Shown: positions 1 to 49,604 of the stretch, piece by piece
Layout: each line of letters begins with the position of its first letter
How positions within the stretch are numbered: position 1 is the first letter of the stretch
Source: a virus
Lineage: Duplodnaviria; Caudoviricetes
Reading direction: 5' to 3' (one strand)
DNA length: 50,822 bases
Virus record (IMG/VR): IMGVR_UViG_3300026302_000105
Location: 1 to 50,822 of that record
Made by a program: the position numbers and the translations under genes
The notes under the pieces: generated by a model
The model's database searches: none
What the model was told of the DNA's origin: nothing
The model's input: the letters and a program-made list of their open reading frames with translations, nothing else

Positions 1-621
1 TCACCTCAGATCGTCAATCAGCTCCAGCGCCCCATCCGGCAGCGGCCGCTGAAGCTCGGCCGCGGGGGCGCCCTGTAGCCAGACTTGCCAGTCGTCGGGC
101 TCGATCAGGATGACAGGCATCGCCTTGGGATGGATCGGCCGGACCTCGGCATTGGGCTCGCAGGTGAGAAAGGCGAACAGGTCGTCGGTCGTCTCACCGT
201 CCTTCAGCTTGCGCATCGACCGCCACTCGGGCACCCATAGCCCCGCAAAGAAAGCCTGATGCTCGCTGATCACCCGGAACCAGGCGTTGCCCGCTCCCTT
301 GCCGCGCGGCTCCGCAAATCGGTCGAAAGGCACGAGACAGCGGTGGTCAGGCCCCAGCCATCGGCGCCAATGAGGCGAGCCGACATTTCGGACGTTGGTG
401 ACGCCCCGGTCGATCCCCGAGGGGCTGTGATATTGCGGCGGCGAGGGGAGGCCCCAGCGCGCCACCCGCAGCACCGCCCCATCCTCCCCCTGCGTCAGGA
501 TCGGTGCCAGCCTGTCGGGGTAGATGTCGCCGGGCTCCATGTTGCCCGCGCGGTTGCTGATTCCGGGAAACAGCCTGCGCATCGCCTCGACGGCGGTGGT
601 CTGGTTGTAGAGGTTGCACAT
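1..621 (-). CDS. SOS response-associated peptidase (SRAP, HMCES/YedK family abasic-site protein)
   Basis: Start placed at MCNLY (catalytic Cys2, ATG at 621). Motifs RCLVPFDRFAE, FAGLW, FAFLT, IHPKAMPVIL. Confidence 0.92.
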   Translation of the reverse strand: MCNLYNQTTAVEAMRRLFPGISNRAGNMEPGDIYPDRLAPILTQGEDGAVLRVARWGLPSPPQYHSPSGIDRGVTNVRNVGSPHWRRWLGPDHRCLVPFDRFAEPRGKGAGNAWFRVISEHQAFFAGLWVPEWRSMRKLKDGETTDDLFAFLTCEPNAEVRPIHPKAMPVILIEPDDWQVWLQGAPAAELQRPLPDGALELIDDLR

Positions 622-684: not shown

Positions 685-891
685 CTATCTCAATGGCGGC
701 CGCTCACGCAGCACCCTGGCGCCATGCTGGAGCGTCAGCCGGTCCTGCGGCCTCTCGCTCTGCAGGGCGTCCCAGGCCGCTTTCATGGCCGTGAAACTCC
801 CGGCCGCAACCGTCTCGTGCAAATGCGGGCCTTTTGCCCAGATGATGTAGAGGGCGGCGTTTTCGTCGAATTTGGGTTCGTGGATTTGCAT
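685..891 (-). CDS. Hypothetical 68-aa protein, first gene of putative SOS-controlled operon
   Basis: ATG lies just downstream of a LexA-boxed promoter; co-oriented with SRAP. Confidence 0.7.
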   Translation of the reverse strand: MQIHEPKFDENAALYIIWAKGPHLHETVAAGSFTAMKAAWDALQSERPQDRLTLQHGARVLRERPPLR

Positions 892-980: not shown

Positions 981-1166
981 ATGTACCCATCCGGCGAAAT
1001 CACTCTCCGCGTCGACTGCGCCTGCGGCCATACCGCCGAGCTACGGGCGGAGGATGTCGGCTGCGACCCTCTCTATTTCAAAGGCTGGGATCGCCTGCGG
1101 TGCAGCCGGTGCGGGCGGAAAGGGCGCCCCGCGGCCATCATGCGCAGCTGGTCACCTGCGAAATAG
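981..1166 (+). CDS. Small putative zinc-ribbon protein
   Basis: CACGH and CSRCG motifs in 61 aa; divergent from the LexA box; weak RBS. Confidence 0.55.
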   Translation: MYPSGEITLRVDCACGHTAELRAEDVGCDPLYFKGWDRLRCSRCGRKGRPAAIMRSWSPAK

Positions 1167-1177
1167 GCCCGCAAAAG

Positions 1178-1229
1178 TTACGCCTAGCGTGATTTTGCCC
1201 TTGCAATGCGATTACGCATAGCGTATCTG
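1178..1229 (+). promoter_or_regulatory. Promoter with two palindromic operators TACGC-N3-GCGTR
   Basis: TACGCCTAGCGTG (1179-1191) and TACGCATAGCGTA (1213-1225) flank/overlap TTGCAA-N17-TATCTG (1201-1229). Confidence 0.65.
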
Positions 1230-1273
1230 TAGAGCATGGAAACGGGCGATGCCCACTGATTGGAGAGACCGTG

Positions 1274-1489
1274 ATGAACAGCTTCGCCATTTTCGCCAAC
1301 GGCGCTTACTGGGGCACTTGGGCCAGCATTGACGCCGAGTCTGCGATGCAGGCTGCTGCCGACGAAGTCGGGACGGAAGGCAATACCGATGGCCTGGTCG
1401 CGCATGAGGTCACGGCCGATCAGGTGACGGCGCTCGACGAATGGTCTGCAAATGGCTCGCCCGCCAGCGAATGCCCGATCAAGGCTTGA
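1274..1489 (+). CDS. Small acidic hypothetical protein (candidate anti-defence protein)
   Basis: GGAGAG RBS; 71 aa with 11 D/E, 1 K and no R. Confidence 0.75.
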   Translation: MNSFAIFANGAYWGTWASIDAESAMQAAADEVGTEGNTDGLVAHEVTADQVTALDEWSANGSPASECPIKA

Positions 1490-1492
1490 TCC

Positions 1493-1723
1493 ATGACCCC
1501 CGAAGAGATCCGCACCGCCCGCGAGACGCTGGGCCTCATGCAGGCCCAGCTTGCCGCCGTCATGGGATTGCGGGGCGCGGCGGCCGTGAGCGAATGGGAG
1601 AAGGGAAAGCGCACACCGGATGGCCGCAGCATCCGCCTCCTGCGCGCTTATCTCGATGGATACAGGCCCTCGGACTGGCCGCTGCAGCCTCAGCCCCCCA
1701 CCGCCCCCACCAGCCCGTCATAG
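1493..1723 (+). CDS. XRE-family HTH regulator (Aca/HigA-like)
   Basis: MTPEEIRTARETLGLMQAQLA...VSEWEKGKRTP, a typical XRE HTH. Confidence 0.85.
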   Translation: MTPEEIRTARETLGLMQAQLAAVMGLRGAAAVSEWEKGKRTPDGRSIRLLRAYLDGYRPSDWPLQPQPPTAPTSPS

Positions 1724-1953
1724 CCCTGCACCGCCAGCCCGCGCCGCCCCTCGCAGGTGATCAGCGCATCACCCATCCGGCCGACGATCAGGCGCCAGTC
1801 CCCGCCGCCCAGTAGATCGGCCGGGGCGGCGCAGGGCAGCCGCGCCTCAGTCGGCAGGGGTGCCGTCTGCACCCCACCGGGCGCGGAGCCCAGACAGGTC
1901 GTCAGGCTGAGGGACAAGGCAAGCGCGGGGATCGGCGAGGATGGCATGGTCAT
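1690..1953 (-). CDS. Putative o-spanin (Rz1-like lipoprotein)
   Basis: Hydrophobic leader ending LSLTTC, Pro-rich, additional Cys; overlaps the 3' end of the i-spanin gene in another frame. Confidence 0.6.
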   Translation of the reverse strand: MTMPSSPIPALALSLSLTTCLGSAPGGVQTAPLPTEARLPCAAPADLLGGGDWRLIVGRMGDALITCEGRRGLAVQGYDGLVGAVGG

Positions 1954-3504: not shown

Positions 3505-4331
3505 CAGGTGAATGCCCCGCGGGCGATCACGCGCGTGAAGTCGTCATCGAGGACGGTCAGGGGCGCGCGCTCTGAGACGGCCAGATCCTCGATCCAGCCC
3601 CGGTAAAGGCGCGTGTTGGGCGCGGCGCCGAAGCCCGGGGGCACGCCCCATTTGGGCTTCATGGCCGAGAAATCGCCCACGTTGTCGTCACCAACAACCG
3701 TGGCCAGCAGGACCGTGCCCAGGGCCGAGCGCATCCGCATGCCGACGCCCCCGGCGTTGCGCCAGTAGGCGATCTGGGTGACCTGACCGAAGATGTTGGC
3801 GTTGGGATCGGTGTTGCCCCCCTGGAACGTCGAGCCGTTGGTCTGGCGGCGGTAGTCGATCCGGGGAATACTGCTCTGCGACCACGTGACCAGCTCGGGT
3901 CCGGCCGAATAGCTGGTGGCCGCACACTGGAACATGGGCGCAATGGAGCCGCCCGTCGCATACCATGCCTCAGAGGTCGGCATCTTGTACCAGCCGACCA
4001 CCATGAAATACTGCGGGCCACCATGGATCGAGGCCAGGCATCCCGCCGGGCCCTCGACATAGGCGCGGTTGGTGATCGGCGCGGCGAAGTCAAAGCCGCC
4101 GCCCGCAAAGATGGTGCCGTCGCCGGTCTCGACAAAGGCGCCGTCGCCCACATCGGCCGCGTCTTTGACCACATCGGCCCCGATCGGATTGCCGCCCGCC
4201 CAGCAATAGCGAAACGCGAGGTCGAACATGAAGGTCACGCCCCCGTTGTCGCCCGTCAGGATGGGATCGCGGCGCAGGGTCACGAGGTCGGGCGCGGTGG
4301 AGGTGGAGAGGGATTTGATGACGACAGGCAT
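3504..4331 (-). CDS. Tail-spike-associated beta-rich (LamG/lectin-like) protein
   Basis: Start at MPVVIKS with AAGGAG RBS; follows the SGNH spike gene; fold is inferred. Confidence 0.6.
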   Translation of the reverse strand: MPVVIKSLSTSTAPDLVTLRRDPILTGDNGGVTFMFDLAFRYCWAGGNPIGADVVKDAADVGDGAFVETGDGTIFAGGGFDFAAPITNRAYVEGPAGCLASIHGGPQYFMVVGWYKMPTSEAWYATGGSIAPMFQCAATSYSAGPELVTWSQSSIPRIDYRRQTNGSTFQGGNTDPNANIFGQVTQIAYWRNAGGVGMRMRSALGTVLLATVVGDDNVGDFSAMKPKWGVPPGFGAAPNTRLYRGWIEDLAVSERAPLTVLDDDFTRVIARGAFT

Positions 4332-4341
4332 TTCAAGCTCC

Positions 4342-7300
4342 TTAGGCTTCGAGCATTTCGAGGAAACCAAATTGCAGGACGCGGCCTCCGTTGGGAGGTT
4401 CGGGGTGGATGCCATCCGCATTGAAAAGGGGGCGATCTGAGGTGCTGGCGTAGTCAGCCGGGACGAGCCCGAAATCCCGCTGGAAATCCCGGAAGGCGAT
4501 CCCTTCCGCCGCCGCGATCTCTCGCGCCTGCGCTGCATAGAGCGCCATGGGGTAGGTGTTTTCGCGCATGTTTTCGGGCGGCATCGCCAGCAGAATATCC
4601 GGCACCGCCGCAGCGGCGCGCAGGCGCTCGATCAGCGTCTCGGCGTGCCCGGCCCAGGTCTCGGGTGACATGACCACTTGGCTGTTAGTACCATCGAGGA
4701 CGGTGAAGGTATCGACCTCCAGCACCTCCCAACCCGCGCGCTGCTGTGCTTCGTCACGGGCGGTCCACTGGCTGATGTTCGACCCGCTACCGCCCAGCTT
4801 GTGAAACCGCACGCCCGAGGCGTCCGACAGCGCGTTGTCGCCGCACAGCTTGACCGTGCCGCTGACCACCTCGATCTCGATCACATGCGCCCCAGCGGTC
4901 AGGGCAATGTCGAAGGTCTGGACCGCATCCACCGTGCCCTGCACGTTTTGGCTGGTCCAGGAGCCGCCATCGACCCGGTGGCGCACGACGCCATCGGCCG
5001 TGCCGATGTAGACGACGCGCAGGGCGGTGTGATCGGGCGAGGCCGGGACCGCGCGCCGGACATAGGCCCCGGCGGTCGAGCTGGAGACGTGCGACAGATC
5101 GGGGCCGTCACTGCCGTTGTAGACCGTCGCCCAGGCGCCGTGGAAATGCAGGGTATAGGAGGACGGGCGCACGTTGCCGTTGATGCCGCTGGGCTGCGTC
5201 CCGGGATAGACCCATGGCCCGCCCGCGCCACCATACCAACCATAGCCCGTCCAGCCGCCGCCCGCGTCACCGTATTGAGCCATGAGCAACTGCGCAGCGG
5301 GTCCGGTCCAGCGGACGGCGGCCTGGGTATAGCTGTCGCCGATAGCCGCGATGTTGATCTGGGTCGCCTCGCCGAGCCTGCATTTGATCATCTTGTAGTG
5401 GCAGTTGCGCAGGGTCTCGCGGCCAAATTGCGGGGCCAACGTTACGCCGCTGGGGGACAGGCTGGCGTCCAGGCGCGTGCCGAGGTCCGGCGCTGACCCG
5501 CGCGCCGCCACAACCTCGGCCGAGGCGTCGTCCCCGGGTGCGGGCGCGGCCCACAGGACTTTCAGATCGGCGTCGGTCGCGATGATCGGCGGAGCCAAAG
5601 GATCGTTGATCTCGTAATACACCAGCTCGAAATCGGCGGTGCCGAGCTTGGCCAGGGCGATGTGCCAAAGGGCGCCTTTGTCCACCCGTCCGAAGATCTT
5701 GTTCATAGCCTCTGCGAAGACCATCAGATCGTCATCGCCCTGAAAGCTCAGCAGATCGAAGACCGCGCGGAAATCGTGCAAGAACCCCAAGCCGTCATCG
5801 ACCCAGTCCGAGCCGTCGAAATGCCAGAAATGCCCCGTGCTGCTGATCCAGGCCGTCTCGCCGGTGGTCGGGGTAAGATCGTCCAGATCGGCGGTCAGAG
5901 CGAGGCTGTAATCCACGGCCACCAGTTCCGACGCGGCGTCCAGCGCGGCCTCGGCGCCCAGCCGCGCCTCCTGTGCGGCAGTGGCGTTGCCCTCGCTGTC
6001 GGCAAGATTCGCGGCCTCTTCGGCGCGGTCGGCGTCTACGCCCGCGGATTCGGCGGCGGTCTCGGCCCGCCAGCGATCGGTCACGTCCTCAAGCCACACC
6101 TCAGCGAAGCGCCAGACGCCATCCGTATCGGCGTCCTCAGTCGCGATTTTCGCCCGGGCGAGCCGGCCGTCGGCGTCAAGGACATGATCCACACCCTCGA
6201 CATCTTGAGAGAGCGTGGCGGCGATCTGAACACGCCCGTCCGCAACCGAGATCGCCGCTGCTGCACGCACGGCGATGGTCTCGACGTTGGTGGTGCCGTC
6301 TTCCTCCCAGGTCTCCACCAGATAGGCGACGGTCGAGATGCCCGAGCTGTTCGCGGCGCAGATCCCGTCGAATCTGGCCTCATAGACGCGCCCATTGGTC
6401 AGGGGGACCCATTCGCGATGGGCGATGATATGCGAGCCGCCACCAGCGATCTCCACCGATGGACCGAGCAGAGCGTCAAGCGCCATGTCGTCGGAGGTAT
6501 AGCCGGACAGATCCTCGGGCCGCCCCTCGTCGGCGGCTACGAACAGCCACGGGCGCCCGGTTCGACCGCGAGCAGCGGCGACCCCAGCCGAATCGAGCGC
6601 CCGGGCTTCCGCCTCATCGACAAGATCGGAAGTCTCTCCGACAAGCTCCTCAACCTCCGCCAGGCTGGTTCCAGTGCTGGTGACCCCTTCCGCCCAGACC
6701 GGCTCGTCCGGCAGCGCCTCCGCAAAGGTGATGGTGGCCTCATCGAGCGTCCAAGCATGCCCGAAGCGCTGAGCCACACCCCCGATGAACACGCGGATCC
6801 TGTCCGACCCGAGCGAAGCCTGGGCGGCGGTGAGCGTCAGTTCCGTCTCGCCGGGGTTGAGGCCGAAATCGACACGCCAAGCGACGAGCTTGTTGGCAGC
6901 GGCTACCGCAATATCACGCGCGGCTTCAACGACCCCTCGATCAATCGAAACCTGCTCGGCATCTTCCGCCACCTGGTCAGCATCCTCGCTGATCTGGTCG
7001 GCGATTTCCTGCATGATCGCGAGGGTTGCAAACCTGATGCGAAGCCAGTTCCCGGAATAGGTGGGCCCGGCATCATCGACCAGAGCGACCAGCACCTCAT
7101 CCCTGGCGAACGACACATCATCTACGGCGCCACCGAGAGTAACCACCCATGCGTCGCGGGCCCGGATGTCGGTTTGGTCCGGTCGCTCATCCGGGAATGC
7201 GCCGCTGGCAGCGCTCCAGGTGCCGACGAACCTGAGGCCGCTCCCGAGCGCGACGTTGATGGGTTCCACCAGGTCGTTGAGCTGCGCATCGAAGGCAGCG

Positions 7301-29850: not shown

Positions 29851-31403
29851 CAGTCGCGCCTCCTGCTCATCTGAAGCTCATGGGCAGACCATAGGTCGTC
29901 GAGGGTCTGCTCGTGCGGCGTTTTCGGGGGCGGGGCCGTGCCCTGAATGATCCGGTCGATACCGCGGGCAAAGAGCGAGGCGGTGTCCACAGTGTCGTCG
30001 TGCTTGCCACCCGGGAATTGCAGCAACTCCGTCACGAAGGCATCGAGCGCCGCCACCTGGTCCGCATTCAACGTCTCGCGGCGCGGCAGGAACATCTTGC
30101 CCATGGCGGCCATGCCGAGAAGCACCTGCGCCTTGGCCTCCTTCTTGGGCGAGGAGGTGATCTGCACGCGGTCGATGTAGAGCCGTTCGCGCTGCAAGGT
30201 TTGATTCAGGAAAGGGCCCACGGACTTGATGATCTGGCCGCTCTCCTCGAACCACCTGGTCGGCTTCCATTTCCGCATCAGCCGCACGAGCTCGGACGCC
30301 CACCGTTCCGCCGTGAACCGCCCGCGCCAGATGTCCATGAGGTAGAAATTCCAGTCGTCGTCGACGGCCCAGACCATGTGCACGGTGAAGTCGGGATCGC
30401 GCGCACCGGCCTCGGCCGTGACCGCGTAATCGCTCGACCCGTAGAAGGCGAGGCGCGTGAGATCGAGAGACGGGCCCCAGGTCTGCTCGACATGCGCGGC
30501 GGAGAACATCAGGCCTGTTTCTGGCGTCGGGCGCTGCTGGTAGAGGGCCGACCAGTTGAAGCCGCCGCGGATGCGCTCCGGTCCCAGCTGCTCCTCTCCG
30601 AATTCCTCCGGCCAGAGCCATTCGCCGATCTTGCGGCCCAGCGGGTCGTCCTCGCGGTTCGCCATTGCTGGGAGGCAGAGCACATACCAAGGCTCGCCAG
30701 TCTCCCGGTCCCGGATCCACCCGCTCTCCCCGTCCCAATTCTCCGGCAGGATGCGGCCCGCAGGATCATCCATATGCCAGCGGGTAAAGGTCATCAGCTG
30801 CTTGCGGCGGCCCTGAAGGCGGGTGCGCATGTCGGTGATGTAGTTGTTCCAGACCTTGTTGCGCTGCTCCGGCGACATCGCCATCTCGCGGCCCTTCACG
30901 ATGTCATCCATGAACAGCCAGTCGGCCGGGCGGCCGTGGGTGTTGCCTGCCATCGAGCCGAAGCCGTTCAGCTCGCCGCCGGCCGTGGTCTTCCAGCGCC
31001 CCTTGGCCTGGGAATCCGGGGCCAGCTCGACGCTATCGAATGGCCATTCCGGCATCCGCAGGTAATTCCTGATGGCGCCGCCGATCTCCTCGGAATACTC
31101 GCCGGTGTGCGTCACGATCATCTCGTAGGCCTTGGGGTGGCGGCCGAGGATCCAGGCGGGGAAGAGCTTTGAGACGGTCAGCGTTTTCGCGTGCCGCGGG
31201 GGCTCGAACAGCATCGCCCGATCGATCTTGTCCTCCTCCATCGCCTGACACAGAGCGGCGACCTTGCGGATATGCCGCGGCGGCAGAAACCCGGTCATGC
31301 GCATGTAGAAGGCCAGGAAACTCTCCCTGGCCCGGCGCCTGTCGATCTCGTCCTCGATCCGCAGCAGTTCCAGCTGCTCGTCTCTGGTCAGGGGTTTCGT
31401 CAT
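29850..31403 (-). CDS. terL: Terminase large subunit
   Basis: PPRHAKT Walker A, LFMDD Walker B, TRWHMDD, ALYQQRP, FPGGKHDDTVD; start MTKPLT. Confidence 0.95.
   Translation of the reverse strand: MTKPLTRDEQLELLRIEDEIDRRRARESFLAFYMRMTGFLPPRHIRKVAALCQAMEEDKIDRAMLFEPPRHAKTLTVSKLFPAWILGRHPKAYEMIVTHTGEYSEEIGGAIRNYLRMPEWPFDSVELAPDSQAKGRWKTTAGGELNGFGSMAGNTHGRPADWLFMDDIVKGREMAMSPEQRNKVWNNYITDMRTRLQGRRKQLMTFTRWHMDDPAGRILPENWDGESGWIRDRETGEPWYVLCLPAMANREDDPLGRKIGEWLWPEEFGEEQLGPERIRGGFNWSALYQQRPTPETGLMFSAAHVEQTWGPSLDLTRLAFYGSSDYAVTAEAGARDPDFTVHMVWAVDDDWNFYLMDIWRGRFTAERWASELVRLMRKWKPTRWFEESGQIIKSVGPFLNQTLQRERLYIDRVQITSSPKKEAKAQVLLGMAAMGKMFLPRRETLNADQVAALDAFVTELLQFPGGKHDDTVDTASLFARGIDRIIQGTAPPPKTPHEQTLDDLWSAHELQMSRRRD
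29888..29923 (-). promoter_or_regulatory. Possible late promoter E (degenerate)
   Basis: AAACGCCGCACG-N18-TATGGT, 62 bp upstream of the portal start. Confidence 0.45.
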
Positions 31404-36723: not shown

Positions 36724-37446
36724 TCACACCCCCAAGGCCGCGCGGAGATCGCGCAACTGCTGGACATTGGCCACCGGCGCGGCACGGCGCAGGAGAGCGC
36801 AGGCCTGCCCTTCATCCACCCCTGCCTCGGCCAGGATCTGCTGGGCCACGCGGAGGTGTTCGGCCCGAAACCAGAACAGCGGCTCGTCAGGACGCGGCAT
36901 GACGCCGGCAGCGGTCAGGAGCGAGCCCACGAGGTTCTGCGGATGATCGCGGTGCGGCGGCGTGACGGGAGAGGCGGATGATGTCGCCATCTGCGTCGGC
37001 GCAGGGCGCTCGGTGGGTACTGCAACAGGCTCAGCGACAGGGTTGACGCTGGCGATCACCGGCAGCGCATCGCCCGCCTTGACACGAGGCTCCGGGAAGG
37101 TCTCAGCGTAAACCCGCTCGCGGGCCACATGGTCAACCACGGCCTTGAAAACCTCGGTGCCGGGGCGCTCGTCTGCTGCCACCTCAAACGGGCGGAGAAG
37201 CTGGTAGACGCTGGGGGCGGTTCCGCTGCCTTTTTCGACGACAGCAACAAGGTCGACTTCGATCAGGCTGGCGATCGCTCCAGCGGCCGCCTGGGCGCTG
37301 ACGCCGCACATGTCGCCAAGATCGCGCAGGCTGATTCCGACGCGGCCGCGGTGGTCGGCGTGAAGCGCGAGGACCAGACGAGCGAGGCGCTGCGCGCCCC
37401 GAGGCTGCGGGTCGGTGAGGGCGAGGTGGGTGTCGAGAGCGCTCAT
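36724..37446 (-). CDS. N-terminal winged-HTH protein
   Basis: ISLRDLGDMCGVS......IASL...GSG..PSVYQL. Confidence 0.7.
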   Translation of the reverse strand: MSALDTHLALTDPQPRGAQRLARLVLALHADHRGRVGISLRDLGDMCGVSAQAAAGAIASLIEVDLVAVVEKGSGTAPSVYQLLRPFEVAADERPGTEVFKAVVDHVARERVYAETFPEPRVKAGDALPVIASVNPVAEPVAVPTERPAPTQMATSSASPVTPPHRDHPQNLVGSLLTAAGVMPRPDEPLFWFRAEHLRVAQQILAEAGVDEGQACALLRRAAPVANVQQLRDLRAALGV

Positions 37447-38159
37447 GCGATCCCCAATTCAGGTTGCCGCCAGTCGACGCGATCGAGCCAGCGAAAGTCG
37501 GGATGGTTGGACTTGGTGTCTCGGGGGTCGTCACGATCCCAGACGAACCAGGCGTTGCGCTGGGGCGCCTGCCCCTCGCCGGTGAAGTCGAGCTTCCAGC
37601 GAAGGAGGTAGCAGTAGGAGAAAGGCGACGTGTCCAGAAGCTCTCCCAGGCCATTGATACGCCCTGCCGCCCATTCCCAGCCCAGGAGGAGCGCGAGATA
37701 GCGCCATCCCGGCATCGCGAGGGTGTGCCGCAACCAGACTCCATGCCCGTCGCGCGCGGTTATCAGGCCATATGGCGGGTTGGTGATGATCACCGGGGCG
37801 CGGGATCGCAGGCACGAGAAATAGTCCGCGGTCCAGCTGTCAGGACAACCGCGGTCGACCAGATCGGAGGCGGTGCATGGAAGCCCGGCGGCGCGGATCT
37901 CGCGCACCAGCGCGCCGTCGCCGCAGGCGGGCTCCCACACAGCGCCCAGCTGGCGGATGCGGTCGCCATCCGCCGCCAGCAGCGCGCGGATCGCCTCGGG
38001 CTGGCCTGTCGGGTAGAAATCGTCGGCGCGGCGCTGATCCTGCGGCACCTTCTGGTCGGGCAGGTCGCCGAACATGCCGGGCCCGCGCACCACCTTGCGG
38101 CGCGTTGCCTTGAAGAGCGCCTTGGAGGATGCGGCCGTCATGCTGCGCTCCTCATCCAT
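37443..38159 (-). CDS. Orphan amino (N6A/N4C) DNA methyltransferase
   Basis: DDFYPT, WEPACGDG (motif I), IITNPPY (motif IV), AWFVW. Confidence 0.88.
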   Translation of the reverse strand: MDEERSMTAASSKALFKATRRKVVRGPGMFGDLPDQKVPQDQRRADDFYPTGQPEAIRALLAADGDRIRQLGAVWEPACGDGALVREIRAAGLPCTASDLVDRGCPDSWTADYFSCLRSRAPVIITNPPYGLITARDGHGVWLRHTLAMPGWRYLALLLGWEWAAGRINGLGELLDTSPFSYCYLLRWKLDFTGEGQAPQRNAWFVWDRDDPRDTKSNHPDFRWLDRVDWRQPELGIA

Positions 38160-40902: not shown

Positions 40903-41568
40903 ATGACCGACGTTCGAGCAATCTCCTACATCCGCCACGTCCTCGAAGAGCGTGACATGTCGCCATCAGCCCTGGCCGAGGCGGCCGGGGTCTCGTCGAC
41001 AACGCTGACGCGCCCCTTGAACAACCCGCATCACAAATTTGAGGTGTCGCTTAGAACGCTCAAGCTGATCGAGAGGGCGACCGGTGTACCAATGGGGCCG
41101 TTCTTCGGCGAAAGCGGTCAGACTGGGGCGGTTGGCCGACCTGTGGCGGCAAACGGTGACGCTCTCGTGCCGATATTCGATGTCGAGGCCAGCGCCGGGT
41201 CTGGCGCGGTAATCGACCATGAGTCCATCGTCGACACCTTGGCGTTCCCGCGCGGCTATCTCCAGCAGATCACCAGCACGCCTCCCTCCAAGCTGGCCAT
41301 CATTTCAGTGCGCGGCGACAGCATGGAGCCGACTCTGGGCGACAAAGACGTGGTGATGATCGACCTGACCAAGAAGAACCTGGGCTTCGACGGCTTGTTC
41401 GTTATCCGGGTCGATTCTGTGCTTCATGTGAAGCGTATCCTGCGCGGCGCGCGTGCGGGCTATGTTCAGATCGTTTCCGACAAGAGGTCGGAGTATCCGG
41501 CCTATGAGCGCTCCATTTCGGAGATCGAGGTCATCGGCAAGGTTGTCTGGTATGGGAGGAAGGTATGA
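40903..41568 (+). CDS. cI: CI-like repressor (HTH + S24 autopeptidase)
   Basis: N-terminal HTH, ASAG cleavage site, GDSMEP Ser, VKR Lys. Confidence 0.93.
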   Translation: MTDVRAISYIRHVLEERDMSPSALAEAAGVSSTTLTRPLNNPHHKFEVSLRTLKLIERATGVPMGPFFGESGQTGAVGRPVAANGDALVPIFDVEASAGSGAVIDHESIVDTLAFPRGYLQQITSTPPSKLAIISVRGDSMEPTLGDKDVVMIDLTKKNLGFDGLFVIRVDSVLHVKRILRGARAGYVQIVSDKRSEYPAYERSISEIEVIGKVVWYGRKV

Positions 41569-48607: not shown

Positions 48608-49604
48608 CCGCACCCCCATCGAATGGGCCGATGCCACCTGGAACCCGATCATCGGCTGCAGCCGCGTGTCCGAGGGGTGCCGGAACTGCTATGCCGAGGT
48701 CATGGCCGCGCGGTTCAGCAAGCCGGGCCAGTGGGGCGAGGGGCTGGCGCAGATCGTGCGCAAGCCGGACGGCAGCGCGGATCACCGCTGGACCGGGAAG
48801 GTGCGATTCAATGAGCGCGCGCTGGACCAGCCCCTGCGCTGGCGCAAGCCGAGGCGGATCTTCGTCTGCTCGACCTCGGACCTGTTCCACGAGGGCGTGC
48901 CGGACGAGTGGCTGGACCGGGTGTTCGCGGTCATGGCGCTGGCGCCTTGGCACACCTTCATGGTGCTGACCAAGCGGCCCGAGCGGGCACGGGAATACCT
49001 GAACAGGCGCGACGAACGCGGGCGCTGGCCCGCCATGGATTACGCCGCGTTGATGGCCGCGACCGGCAGCTGGTCCACTCCCGCGCTGGATCTGCGCGAG
49101 GGCTGGCCCCTGCCCAACGTCTGGCTCGGCACCAGCATCGAGGACCAGGCGACCGCCGACGCCCGCATCCCGCACCTTCTGGCCACCGCGGCGGCGGTAC
49201 GGTTCGTCTCGGCCGAGCCGCTGCTGGGGCCGGTAGATCTCGGCGGCTACCTTCCCGACCTCGACTGTGGCGACGGCCTCGACCTCGTGATAGTCGGCGG
49301 GGAAAGCGGCCCGGGCGCGCGGCCGATGCACCCCGACTGGCCCCGCGCGCTGCGAGACCAGTGCGTCGCGGCTGGGACCGCGTTCTTCTTCAAGCAATGG
49401 GGGGAGTGGGCGCCAGCGGCTGGATGGTACGAAGACCATCAGGTTTCGCTGCCGTTGCGCGTTTGGGGGCCGAATGGATGGACCGACGATGGGCGCGTTG
49501 ACGGCGAATGGCTCGCCCGAGCCGGCAAGAAAGCAGCCGGTCGCCTGCTGGACGGGAAGGTCTGGGACCAGATGCCGGGGGGTGGGGATGGGCTCGATCG
49601 CTAA
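48600..49604 (+). CDS. Gp37/Gp68 (DUF5131) radical-SAM-like phage protein
   Basis: IEWADATWNP..GCSRVSEGCRNCYA, SDLFH, LTKRP, RFVSAEPLLG, GGESG, FFFKQWG. Confidence 0.92.
   Translation: MADRTPIEWADATWNPIIGCSRVSEGCRNCYAEVMAARFSKPGQWGEGLAQIVRKPDGSADHRWTGKVRFNERALDQPLRWRKPRRIFVCSTSDLFHEGVPDEWLDRVFAVMALAPWHTFMVLTKRPERAREYLNRRDERGRWPAMDYAALMAATGSWSTPALDLREGWPLPNVWLGTSIEDQATADARIPHLLATAAAVRFVSAEPLLGPVDLGGYLPDLDCGDGLDLVIVGGESGPGARPMHPDWPRALRDQCVAAGTAFFFKQWGEWAPAAGWYEDHQVSLPLRVWGPNGWTDDGRVDGEWLARAGKKAAGRLLDGKVWDQMPGGGDGLDR

Follow-up and report, generated by a model that had tools for sequence, protein, structure and literature searches.

A candidate acr-aca-type operon with a rare family of small acidic proteins at one end of a Caudoviricetes prophage

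The closest described system to the locus presented here is the operon of the Rhodobacter phage RcapNL that encodes the anti-CRISPR (Acr) protein AcrIC9. In the paper that reported it, AcrIC9 (79 residues, isoelectric point (pI) 3.96) is validated against type I-C CRISPR-Cas and comes from a three-gene directon, the second gene of which encodes a helix-turn-helix (HTH) protein called a distant homologue of the anti-CRISPR-associated (Aca) protein Aca3 (Gussow 2020, PMC7391736). AcrIC9 is reported to be an acidic, DNA-mimic-type protein made of three strands and three helices, which binds Cas7 (PMC10478522). Operons governed by Aca1, Aca2, Aca10 and Aca12 are described as carrying a DNA motif within the promoter, starting transcription 10–15 nt downstream of it and opening their 5' untranslated region with an RNA hairpin (Feussner 2026, PMC13551039). 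Here we describe a two-gene operon at positions 1178–1723 of a 50,822-bp stretch of Caudoviricetes DNA (IMG/VR record IMGVR_UViG_3300026302_000105, positions 1 to 50,822), which was analysed at its full length and is referred to below as the window. The first gene encodes a 71-residue acidic protein (the cargo), the second an XRE-type HTH protein. We put at about 0.6 the probability that this is an acr-aca-type operon, in which the HTH belongs to the AcrIC9-associated family and the cargo represents a new, rare family of small acidic anti-defence candidates. Its elements are listed below.

1179–1191, plus strand: candidate for the distal operator, TACGC-CTA-GCGTG, with a single mismatch between its arms; it ends 10 bp ahead of the -35-like hexamer.
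1201–1206, plus strand: -35-like hexamer TTGCAA, read from the sequence.
1213–1225, plus strand: proximal operator candidate, TACGC-ATA-GCGTA, a perfect palindrome within the -35/-10 spacer that covers the first two bases of the -10.
1224–1229, plus strand: -10-like hexamer TATCTG, weak, with G as its last base, at a 17-nt spacer from TTGCAA.
1235–1254, plus strand: leader conserved across related loci, CATGGAAACG (1235–1244) followed by a short GC hairpin, GGGC-gat-GCCC (1244–1254).
1262–1267, plus strand: Shine-Dalgarno sequence GGAGAG, 6 nt before the ATG at 1274, read directly.
1274–1489, plus strand: cargo gene, encoding the 71-residue acidic protein of a rare phage family, a candidate anti-defence protein.
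1493–1723, plus strand: gene for the Aca-like XRE HTH protein (76 residues, phrog_14076).

The promoter elements claimed in a preliminary description of this DNA, that is, two TACGC-N3-GCGTR palindromes 34 bp apart (their starts are at 1179 and 1213) and TTGCAA-N17-TATCTG, were all found at these coordinates. Both open reading frames (ORFs) were also as described, since the first has 11 Asp and Glu residues in total, one Lys and no Arg, for a pI of 4.05, and the second matches Pfam HTH_3 (E 8.3e-7). The cargo stop codon (1487–1489) and the HTH start at 1493 lie on the same strand, making these two translationally close genes. The motif TACGCNNNGCGTR has three strand-matches (two sites) in the window, against 0.08 expected and with three or more in none of 100 shuffles, and only five sites in the whole 4.87-Mb host genome, two of which are the operators of the operon. 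For TTACGCNTAGCGTR, with up to two mismatches allowed, the distal and proximal sites are the only two copies in the 50.8-kb window. Since the operator motif is absent elsewhere in the prophage, the HTH looks like an autoregulator, not a global regulator. Judged on the comparison of related loci (see below), autorepression via the two palindromes appears well supported. A sigma-70-type promoter would drive both genes of what is an accessory operon close to attL (see below), with a transcription start predicted near 1236, so that CATGGAAACG and the hairpin probably stand at the 5' end of the operon mRNA. The HTH would most likely bind as a dimer to both 13-bp palindromes, that of the -35/-10 spacer and that located 34 bp further upstream. 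After a first burst of expression, it would thereby silence its own promoter in the manner of Aca proteins. The combination of a promoter inverted repeat, a leader hairpin and a downstream, presumably autorepressing HTH is shared with the acrIF8-aca2 operon of Pectobacterium phage ZF40 and with the Aca1, Aca2, Aca10 and Aca12 operons, as these are described (Feussner 2026, PMC13551039).

The kinship with the RcapNL operon is visible in the HTH. In RcapNL, where gp33 is AcrIC9 (PDB 8hjj, E 3.7e-49), the genes gp33-gp32-gp31 are flanked by the last of the late genes and by the integrase and are encoded on the opposite strand, and gp32, the HTH, matches phrog_14076 over its full length (E 1.5e-22). 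The window HTH (E 1.9e-20, next PHROG 7.7e-10), gp22 of Ruegeria phage DSS3-P1 (3e-28) and p71 of Paracoccus phage Pkon1 (1.7e-16) match the same family, the next PHROG being weaker by at least seven orders of magnitude for all four proteins. When the profile of the HTH family was aligned with gp32 by hhalign, a probability of 97.3% was obtained (E 1.8e-11, 66 columns), against less than 1% for two unrelated cI-like repressors used as controls. In a tblastn search, gp32 matched the HTH in 39 rows of related loci at 29–47% identity, mostly nearly full-length (residues 1–63 or more).

Shared regulatory DNA adds specificity to this link. Upstream of acrIC9, GTGCG-N5-CGCAC occurs twice around TTGACT, at a distance of 35 bp (counted by hand), and is followed by CATGGAAACG, a hairpin, a Shine-Dalgarno sequence and ATGACCAGCTT. 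The two operons therefore have in common distal and proximal inverted repeats 33–35 bp apart around the -35, CATGGAAACG, the hairpin, the Shine-Dalgarno site and the start ATGA(C/A)CAGCTT. They also agree in their place, each following the late genes on the strand opposite to them and belonging to an accessory arm at a prophage end. Both have a small acidic cargo and a host with type I-C CRISPR. They differ in that (i) the operators are GTGCG-N5-CGCAC in RcapNL but TACGC-N3-GCGTA in the window, (ii) the RcapNL operon has a third gene whereas that of the window has two genes, (iii) the integrase directly follows the operon in RcapNL, whereas in the window it is at the other end and the operon is 1.3 kb from attL, and (iv) the two HTH proteins are only about 31–33% identical.

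The promoter design recurs across related loci, and the operators, as read from these sequences, change with the HTH subtype. In the 'GL-RGA..VSEWE' subtype (the window, L014, which is the same locus as L006, L015 and L024), two RCGC-N3-GCGY palindromes are exactly 34 bp apart, and in all four loci the distance from the core of the distal operator to the start of a TTGC(A/G)N hexamer is exactly 21 bp. The same design precedes a two-cargo operon in L013, with palindromes 33 bp apart (counted by hand). In the 'LDTD..RRxE' subtype, the operators are TAGGGGC-N4-GCCCCTA (L007, L027, L028 and L032) or TAGCGCC-N3-GGCGCTA (Pkon1 and L035) and lie between -35 and -10. By eye, at least 14 of 30 loci have a -35-like TTG hexamer followed by an inverted repeat of the operator kind. 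Between 1179, where the distal operator begins, and 1255, immediately after the hairpin, L006 agrees with the window at 76 of 77 nt. Its upstream flank is unrelated and its coding regions have diverged; the single difference in this block is the last base of the -10, G in the window instead of A. As for the leader, CATGGAAACG is the same, without any change, in L006, in L007, in the window and ahead of acrIC9 in RcapNL (L066, 22197–22206), and is also found in the L013 promoter; it occurs eight times in the 4.87-Mb host genome. RcapNL has a second copy at 31387–31396, beside a CI-like repressor gene. According to a simple script, 21 of 24 loci have a GC stem-loop in the last 48 nt ahead of the start codon, with its end at a distance of 13–34 nt from that codon, and the leaders have a mean folding z of -1.28, with 12 of the 24 loci below -1.5. 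In the window, the stem of the hairpin is of 4 bp only.

The HTH family itself has a conserved core (residues 1–63, ending in LRAYLDGYRPSDWP) and, in the family alignment, the signature MTPxExxxARxxLGL...RLxRAYLDGYRPxDWP. It was found in 42 IMG/VR loci and in five of 300 other genomes of the host's family, and relatives identified by tblastn are in Rhizobium phage 16-3, ten Ruegeria DSS3-P1-like records, Paracoccus phage Pkon1 and the HTH of the ZF40 cI repressor. The AlphaFold2 model (pLDDT, the predicted local confidence, 84.5) has four helices and an extended tail. Its fold is that of a generic XRE protein: P22 C2, HigA2, MqsA, C.Kpn2I, Aca2 and Aca10 were all retrieved by Foldseek at E 2.6e-3 to 3.5e-2, the last value being that of Aca10 (7xi5). 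Pfam gave HTH_3, HTH_31 and MqsA_antitoxin only (E <= 1), PADLOC generic HTH matches only (including Control_protein, E 1.9e-4), and phmmer against the PDB weak matches to Aca3 (9vt3, E 0.024) and Aca10 (7xi5, E 0.18). Although the HTH superposes on Aca2 and Aca10 with a root-mean-square deviation (rmsd) of about 1.0–1.1 Å, it differs from Aca2 in having no DUF1870 match (Pfam, E <= 1), and Aca2 chains are not among the phmmer matches at E <= 1. RNA binding, which has been described for Aca2 and Aca1, is for the phrog_14076 HTH only a candidate property. In the literature searched, supplementary tables aside, the family was not found named as Aca, and the terms Rhodobacter, Paracoccus, Ruegeria and Alphaproteobacteria are absent from the main text of PMC13551039. 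A predicted complex of the HTH with the acidic protein scored 0.00, below the mark, which counts neither way.

Two other known arrangements bear on the family. In Ruegeria phage DSS3-P1, gp25-gp21 comprise two tandem phrog_14076 HTHs behind three small ORFs, and the promoter of this directon has a TAGGGTCC-N4-GGACCTA repeat. Gussow 2020 (PMC7391736) places four of the five Acrs predicted in this phage in one HTH-containing directon, which we infer to be gp25-gp21. Unlike in the window, the cargo here has no relationship to the acidic family, and the Acrs of this phage are no more than predictions. Restriction-modification controller (C) proteins resemble the window in being small XRE HTHs with two palindromic operators at their own promoter and possibly timed expression; C.Kpn2I is among the top fold matches of the HTH, in line with the Control_protein match in PADLOC. 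Unlike in these systems, the operators of the window are 34 bp apart and not adjacent. A restriction-modification controller system was rejected, there being no restriction or methylase gene in the operon, the neighbours of which are a spanin-like ORF, lysis genes and a zinc-ribbon-like ORF.

What precedes the HTH is highly variable. The survey covered 32 loci, which correspond to 30 of the 42 viral HTH loci plus the window and Pkon1, the other 12 having been dropped as duplicates, truncated at a contig end, with an integrase upstream, or unclear. Taken as those whose end lies between -120 and +40 nt relative to the HTH start, the upstream ORFs fall into 24 clusters (blastp, E < 1e-3) of at most three members, although some of the ORF calls may be spurious. 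As to what the preliminary description had suggested looking for beside HTH homologues, a variable upstream gene was found (24 clusters in 32 loci), whereas a known Acr was not, in those clusters as compared with Pfam and PHROGs. Three of the 24 representatives have weak Pfam matches (RMF, ribosome modulation factor, 7.1e-5; TPR_19, 0.003; YccJ, 0.0034) and three match PHROGs of unknown function. Several cargos are strongly acidic (pI 4.1–4.4). For the L013 cargo, the RecA-concatemer rows in a PDB search were taken as artefacts, with no passing stretches. A cargo of about 60 residues with a C-terminal membrane helix precedes the HTH in Pkon1 (L012, 2230–2713), L060 (1316–1716) and L035 (2322–2707). 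In Pkon1 and L060 this membrane-peptide/HTH pair lies within the lysis cassette but is oriented against it, and that of L060 is also beside an amidase. Such membrane-helix cargos are unlikely to be cytoplasmic inhibitors.

The acidic protein has no match in Pfam, PHROG, NCBIfam or PADLOC. Its relatives number five among 5.8 billion clusters, a profile search with the family retrieved 64 representatives at E <= 1e-3 (38 at E <= 1e-10) among 1.84 billion proteins, and the family is present in eight IMG/VR loci; in a scan of genome contigs, 423 pattern matches gave no confirmed member. It is a real, conserved, phage-borne and rare family. All eight members examined have a pI of 4.05–4.24. The start Met, Ala, Gly and Thr are the only invariant residues. 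Conservation extends over the first ~45 residues and is followed by a variable C-terminus: a short helix (the window type), a domain of ~65 residues (L006, L007 and L010), nothing, or the fusion domain of L009. The latter locus (4001–4426) encodes a 141-residue fusion of the acidic N-terminal domain with a second domain; this second domain shares 56% identity (E 8e-31) with an acidic cargo that stands alone in L017, L025 and L029, and the fusion links two cargo families of the same HTH. The AlphaFold2 model of the window protein is of good confidence (pLDDT 82.8) and compact, with the order beta-beta-alpha-beta-alpha, and a search of the ESM Atlas retrieved 'hypothetical protein' clusters only (scores <= 0.89). 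Nine neighbourhoods of the acidic gene are available, counting the window. In L006 the gene is accompanied by the same HTH (77% identity) and the same promoter as in the window; in L007 by a diverged member of the HTH family and a different promoter palindrome, AGGGGC-N4-GCCCCT; and in L008 by an unrelated 114-residue HTH-like protein behind an ATGTCG-N10-CGACAT repeat. On these properties, the acidic protein looks like a small, strongly acidic, non-enzymatic binding protein.

The host has a plausible target. Contig C9 carries, at about 40.9–56.6 kb, a complete-looking type I-C locus with cas3, cas5c, cas8c (TIGR01863, E 3.2e-142), cas7 (TIGR02589, E 1.6e-106), cas1 (PF01867, E 6.9e-99) and cas2, and an adjoining array of 111 repeats and 110 spacers, with a degenerate repeat at its far end. 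Two of these spacers match the window. TTC is the type I-C protospacer adjacent motif.

49521–49555, minus strand: imperfect protospacer of spacer 4 of 110 (near the leader), 29/35 matches, with TTC directly 5'.
4869–4903, minus strand: imperfect protospacer in the tail-fibre gene, spacer 89 of 110, 31/35 matches, with TGC and not TTC as 5' flank.

On a rough estimate, these matches are far too good for chance, and the host has therefore met relatives of the prophage; self-targeting pressure on the prophage is possible. A third spacer (spacer 38) matches at 30 of 36 positions elsewhere on contig C3, about 110 kb before the window, at a place that may belong to another mobile element. On contig C9, two small adjacent ORFs of 91 and 99 residues (36999–37583, minus strand), situated just upstream of the CRISPR-Cas genes, look HigB/HigA-like by eye. 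The acidic protein would most likely neutralise a host defence, and by analogy with AcrIC9 the host's own type I-C CRISPR-Cas would be the prime candidate target. That it is specifically a type I-C Acr is a tentative proposal, which we consider rather doubtful. Similarly speculative is a wider picture in which the protein would found an Acr family against type I-C Cascade (DNA-mimic-like and unrelated to AcrIC9), phrog_14076 'LRAYLDGYRPxDWP' HTHs would be an unrecognised and widespread Aca family of alphaproteobacterial phages, the 24 or more cargo families would be an anti-defence reservoir, and the CATGGAAACG-hairpin leader would confer Aca2-like control at the RNA level.

The acr-aca-like layout that had been proposed for this locus stands, given an HTH that shares its PHROG with that of the acrIC9 operon, a shared promoter design, a hypervariable upstream gene and the presence of type I-C in the host. 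A series of results nevertheless weighs against reading it as an acr-aca-type operon with an anti-defence cargo. Concerning the HTH, the same hhalign profile gave 95.9% (E 5e-9) for the HTH of the ZF40 cI repressor, and the profile match alone is therefore not specific and no proof of Aca identity. Moreover, the link of the family to anti-CRISPR rests on one validated case and the published DSS3-P1 predictions. Concerning the acidic protein, homology of its family to AcrIC9 was rejected (hhalign probability 0.6%, BLASTP E 0.79): AcrIC9 (8hjj / 8g9t) is not listed in the PDB profile search with the family at E <= 10, and a tblastn search with AcrIC9 gave no match at E <= 1e-2 in the related loci examined or the host genome. 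No solved protein in the PDB was matched by sequence (profile search, E <= 10) and Foldseek with the model found nothing at E <= 1e-3 in the PDB or BFVD. A wide fold search with VIA gave PaaB as best match (Z 5.1), with AcrIE2 at 3.9 and AcrIC9 at 2.7 (rmsd 4.1 Å over 53 residues in VIA-align), all of which are within the noise range stated for the tool. AcrIC9 and the acidic protein are each small, acidic and of beta/alpha make-up. Beyond this protein, no known Acr or anti-defence family was found when the 24 cargo representatives were compared with Pfam and PHROGs, nor an Acr when three further acidic cargos (L025, L013 and L016) were searched by sequence against the PDB. The acidic gene is without an adjacent HTH in five of the nine loci (L003, L004, L005, L009 and L010), where it is found among small early-type ORFs, and its family was found in none of 400 other genomes of the same order. 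Among the 110 spacers there is no perfect self-targeting one, both matches having 4–6 mismatches, and with mismatched spacers the prophage may be tolerated without an Acr. Finally, a strict scan of 600–2400 for sigma-70 promoters and terminators called no promoter at the operon, because the -10 ends in G; at the same place, L006 and L024 have TATCTA, L015 TATATA and L013 TATAGA. One terminator-like site from that scan (855–868) is unrelated to the operon.

Part of this evidence can be read in terms of an autoregulated accessory ('moron') operon, the cargo of which would not be anti-defence but would serve early host takeover or lysogenic conversion, for instance by inhibiting a polymerase, nuclease or regulator of the host, with the HTH as a general cassette regulator. 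The great diversity of the cargos, including membrane-anchored peptides in lysis cassettes and the one RMF match (E 7.1e-5), is in keeping with this, as are the occurrence of acidic-protein homologues among small early genes in contigs without the HTH, a fold that weakly resembles those of T7 Gp2 (Z 3.3) and of some uncharacterised small proteins of phages, and the statement that genes regulated by Aca proteins are not only acr but include non-Acr anti-defence candidates (Feussner 2026, PMC13551039). On the other side stand the facts that an anti-CRISPR is what was found in the one operon with this HTH family to have been tested for function, that the host has the matching CRISPR type with spacers against this phage lineage, and that a small, very acidic protein with no catalytic residues has the typical, though not specific, profile of a DNA-mimic inhibitor. 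We regard an operon of this kind as possible but unlikely, and the acr-aca-type operon, with its inferred anti-defence cargo, as the better description of the data.

Far less probable is the toxin-antitoxin pair that the preliminary description had kept as its alternative, that is, a type II system with the toxin gene first (HigBA/MqsRA-like), in which the role of toxin would fall to the acidic protein and those of antitoxin and promoter repressor to the HTH. MqsRA and HigBA share with the window a small upstream gene, a downstream HTH, autoregulatory-type palindromes and a similar HTH fold, and a resemblance of the HTH to MqsA and HigA2, in their C-terminal domains, is indeed seen (Foldseek E 2.8e-3 to 4.1e-3; Pfam MqsA_antitoxin E 3.6e-5 and TIGR03830 E 1.4e-8, both below cut-off). 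The upstream gene of the window is different, however: it encodes an acidic protein (pI 4.05) without toxin-family match in Pfam, NCBIfam or PADLOC and without catalytic-type invariant residues (only Ala, Gly and Thr beyond the start Met), it is interchangeable across 24 families, and it is often solitary, being without an adjacent HTH in five of nine loci, and is therefore unlikely to be a toxin needing its antitoxin. Likewise, the C-terminal motif of the HTH is invariant while its partner changes across 24 unrelated clusters, unlike in a partner-specific antitoxin, and its core of only 63 residues has no extra toxin-binding domain. The toxin-antitoxin alternative is thereby weakened. Hardly probable either is a decaying or silent remnant, in which a promoter crippled by its -10 (TATCTG) would leave the operon without current function in the lysogen. 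The empty strict scan, and the fact that the sole difference from L006 in the 77-nt block hits the last -10 base, fit such a remnant. Alphaproteobacterial promoters tolerate divergent -10 boxes, and against decay are the otherwise identical regulatory block in L006, good ribosome-binding sites and two intact ORFs with a high third-position GC (0.74 for the cargo and 0.83 for the HTH).

The setting of the operon is that of a prophage end. A 58-bp exact direct repeat flanks the window on contig C3, 163–106 bp before its start and 68–125 bp after its end, the right copy overlapping tRNA-Leu(CAA). From these positions, the prophage is ~51.1 kb long and the operon lies 1.3 kb inside attL. The late genes, from ~1690, are on the minus strand (spanin-like ORFs, an endolysin-sized ORF, tail, head and terminase), so that the position claimed for the operon, at the prophage end and against the late operon, is confirmed. 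A cI-like repressor gene is at 40903–41568 and the integrase gene starts from 49791, at the prophage end opposite the operon. By terminase, the closest cultured phage is Ruegeria phage 45A6 (64% identity). The left 1.9 kb of the prophage form an accessory arm, in which the cargo-HTH operon is preceded by the following genes.

4–621, minus strand: SRAP gene (Pfam E 2.9e-18; phrog_1599 E 2.8e-32).
688–891, minus strand: 68-residue ORF behind a GAAC-N7-GAAC box (901–915).
981–1166, plus strand: 61-residue Cys-rich, zinc-ribbon-like ORF, divergent from the 68-residue ORF.

The GAAC-N7-GAAC box resembles an alphaproteobacterial LexA site. The zinc-ribbon-like ORF ends 12 bp before the distal operator, and since there is no terminator between them, SOS-driven read-through into the operon is conceivable. 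At the other side, the coding sequence of the Pro-rich HTH tail has 34 nt in common with the 3' end of a convergent spanin-like ORF (1690–1953, minus strand; phrog_32876, E 5.7e-6). Several HTH relatives stop a few residues past the DWP motif and others have tails of their own; that of the window is probably incidental.

If the acidic protein does block type I-C or another defence, a new family of inhibitors would be added to those available. Large genome deletions are made with type I-C, a compact system, and a new off-switch would, if the proposal is true, be useful. The HTH family is of interest as an anchor for guilt by association, with one proven anti-CRISPR, recognisable operators that vary with the protein and at least two dozen unrelated small proteins, all the more so since it occurs in marine and soil alphaproteobacterial phages, which are poorly covered by anti-defence screens. 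Lastly, the leader made of CATGGAAACG and a hairpin bears on whether RNA-level control, to date demonstrated for Aca2 and Aca1, extends to another Aca lineage.

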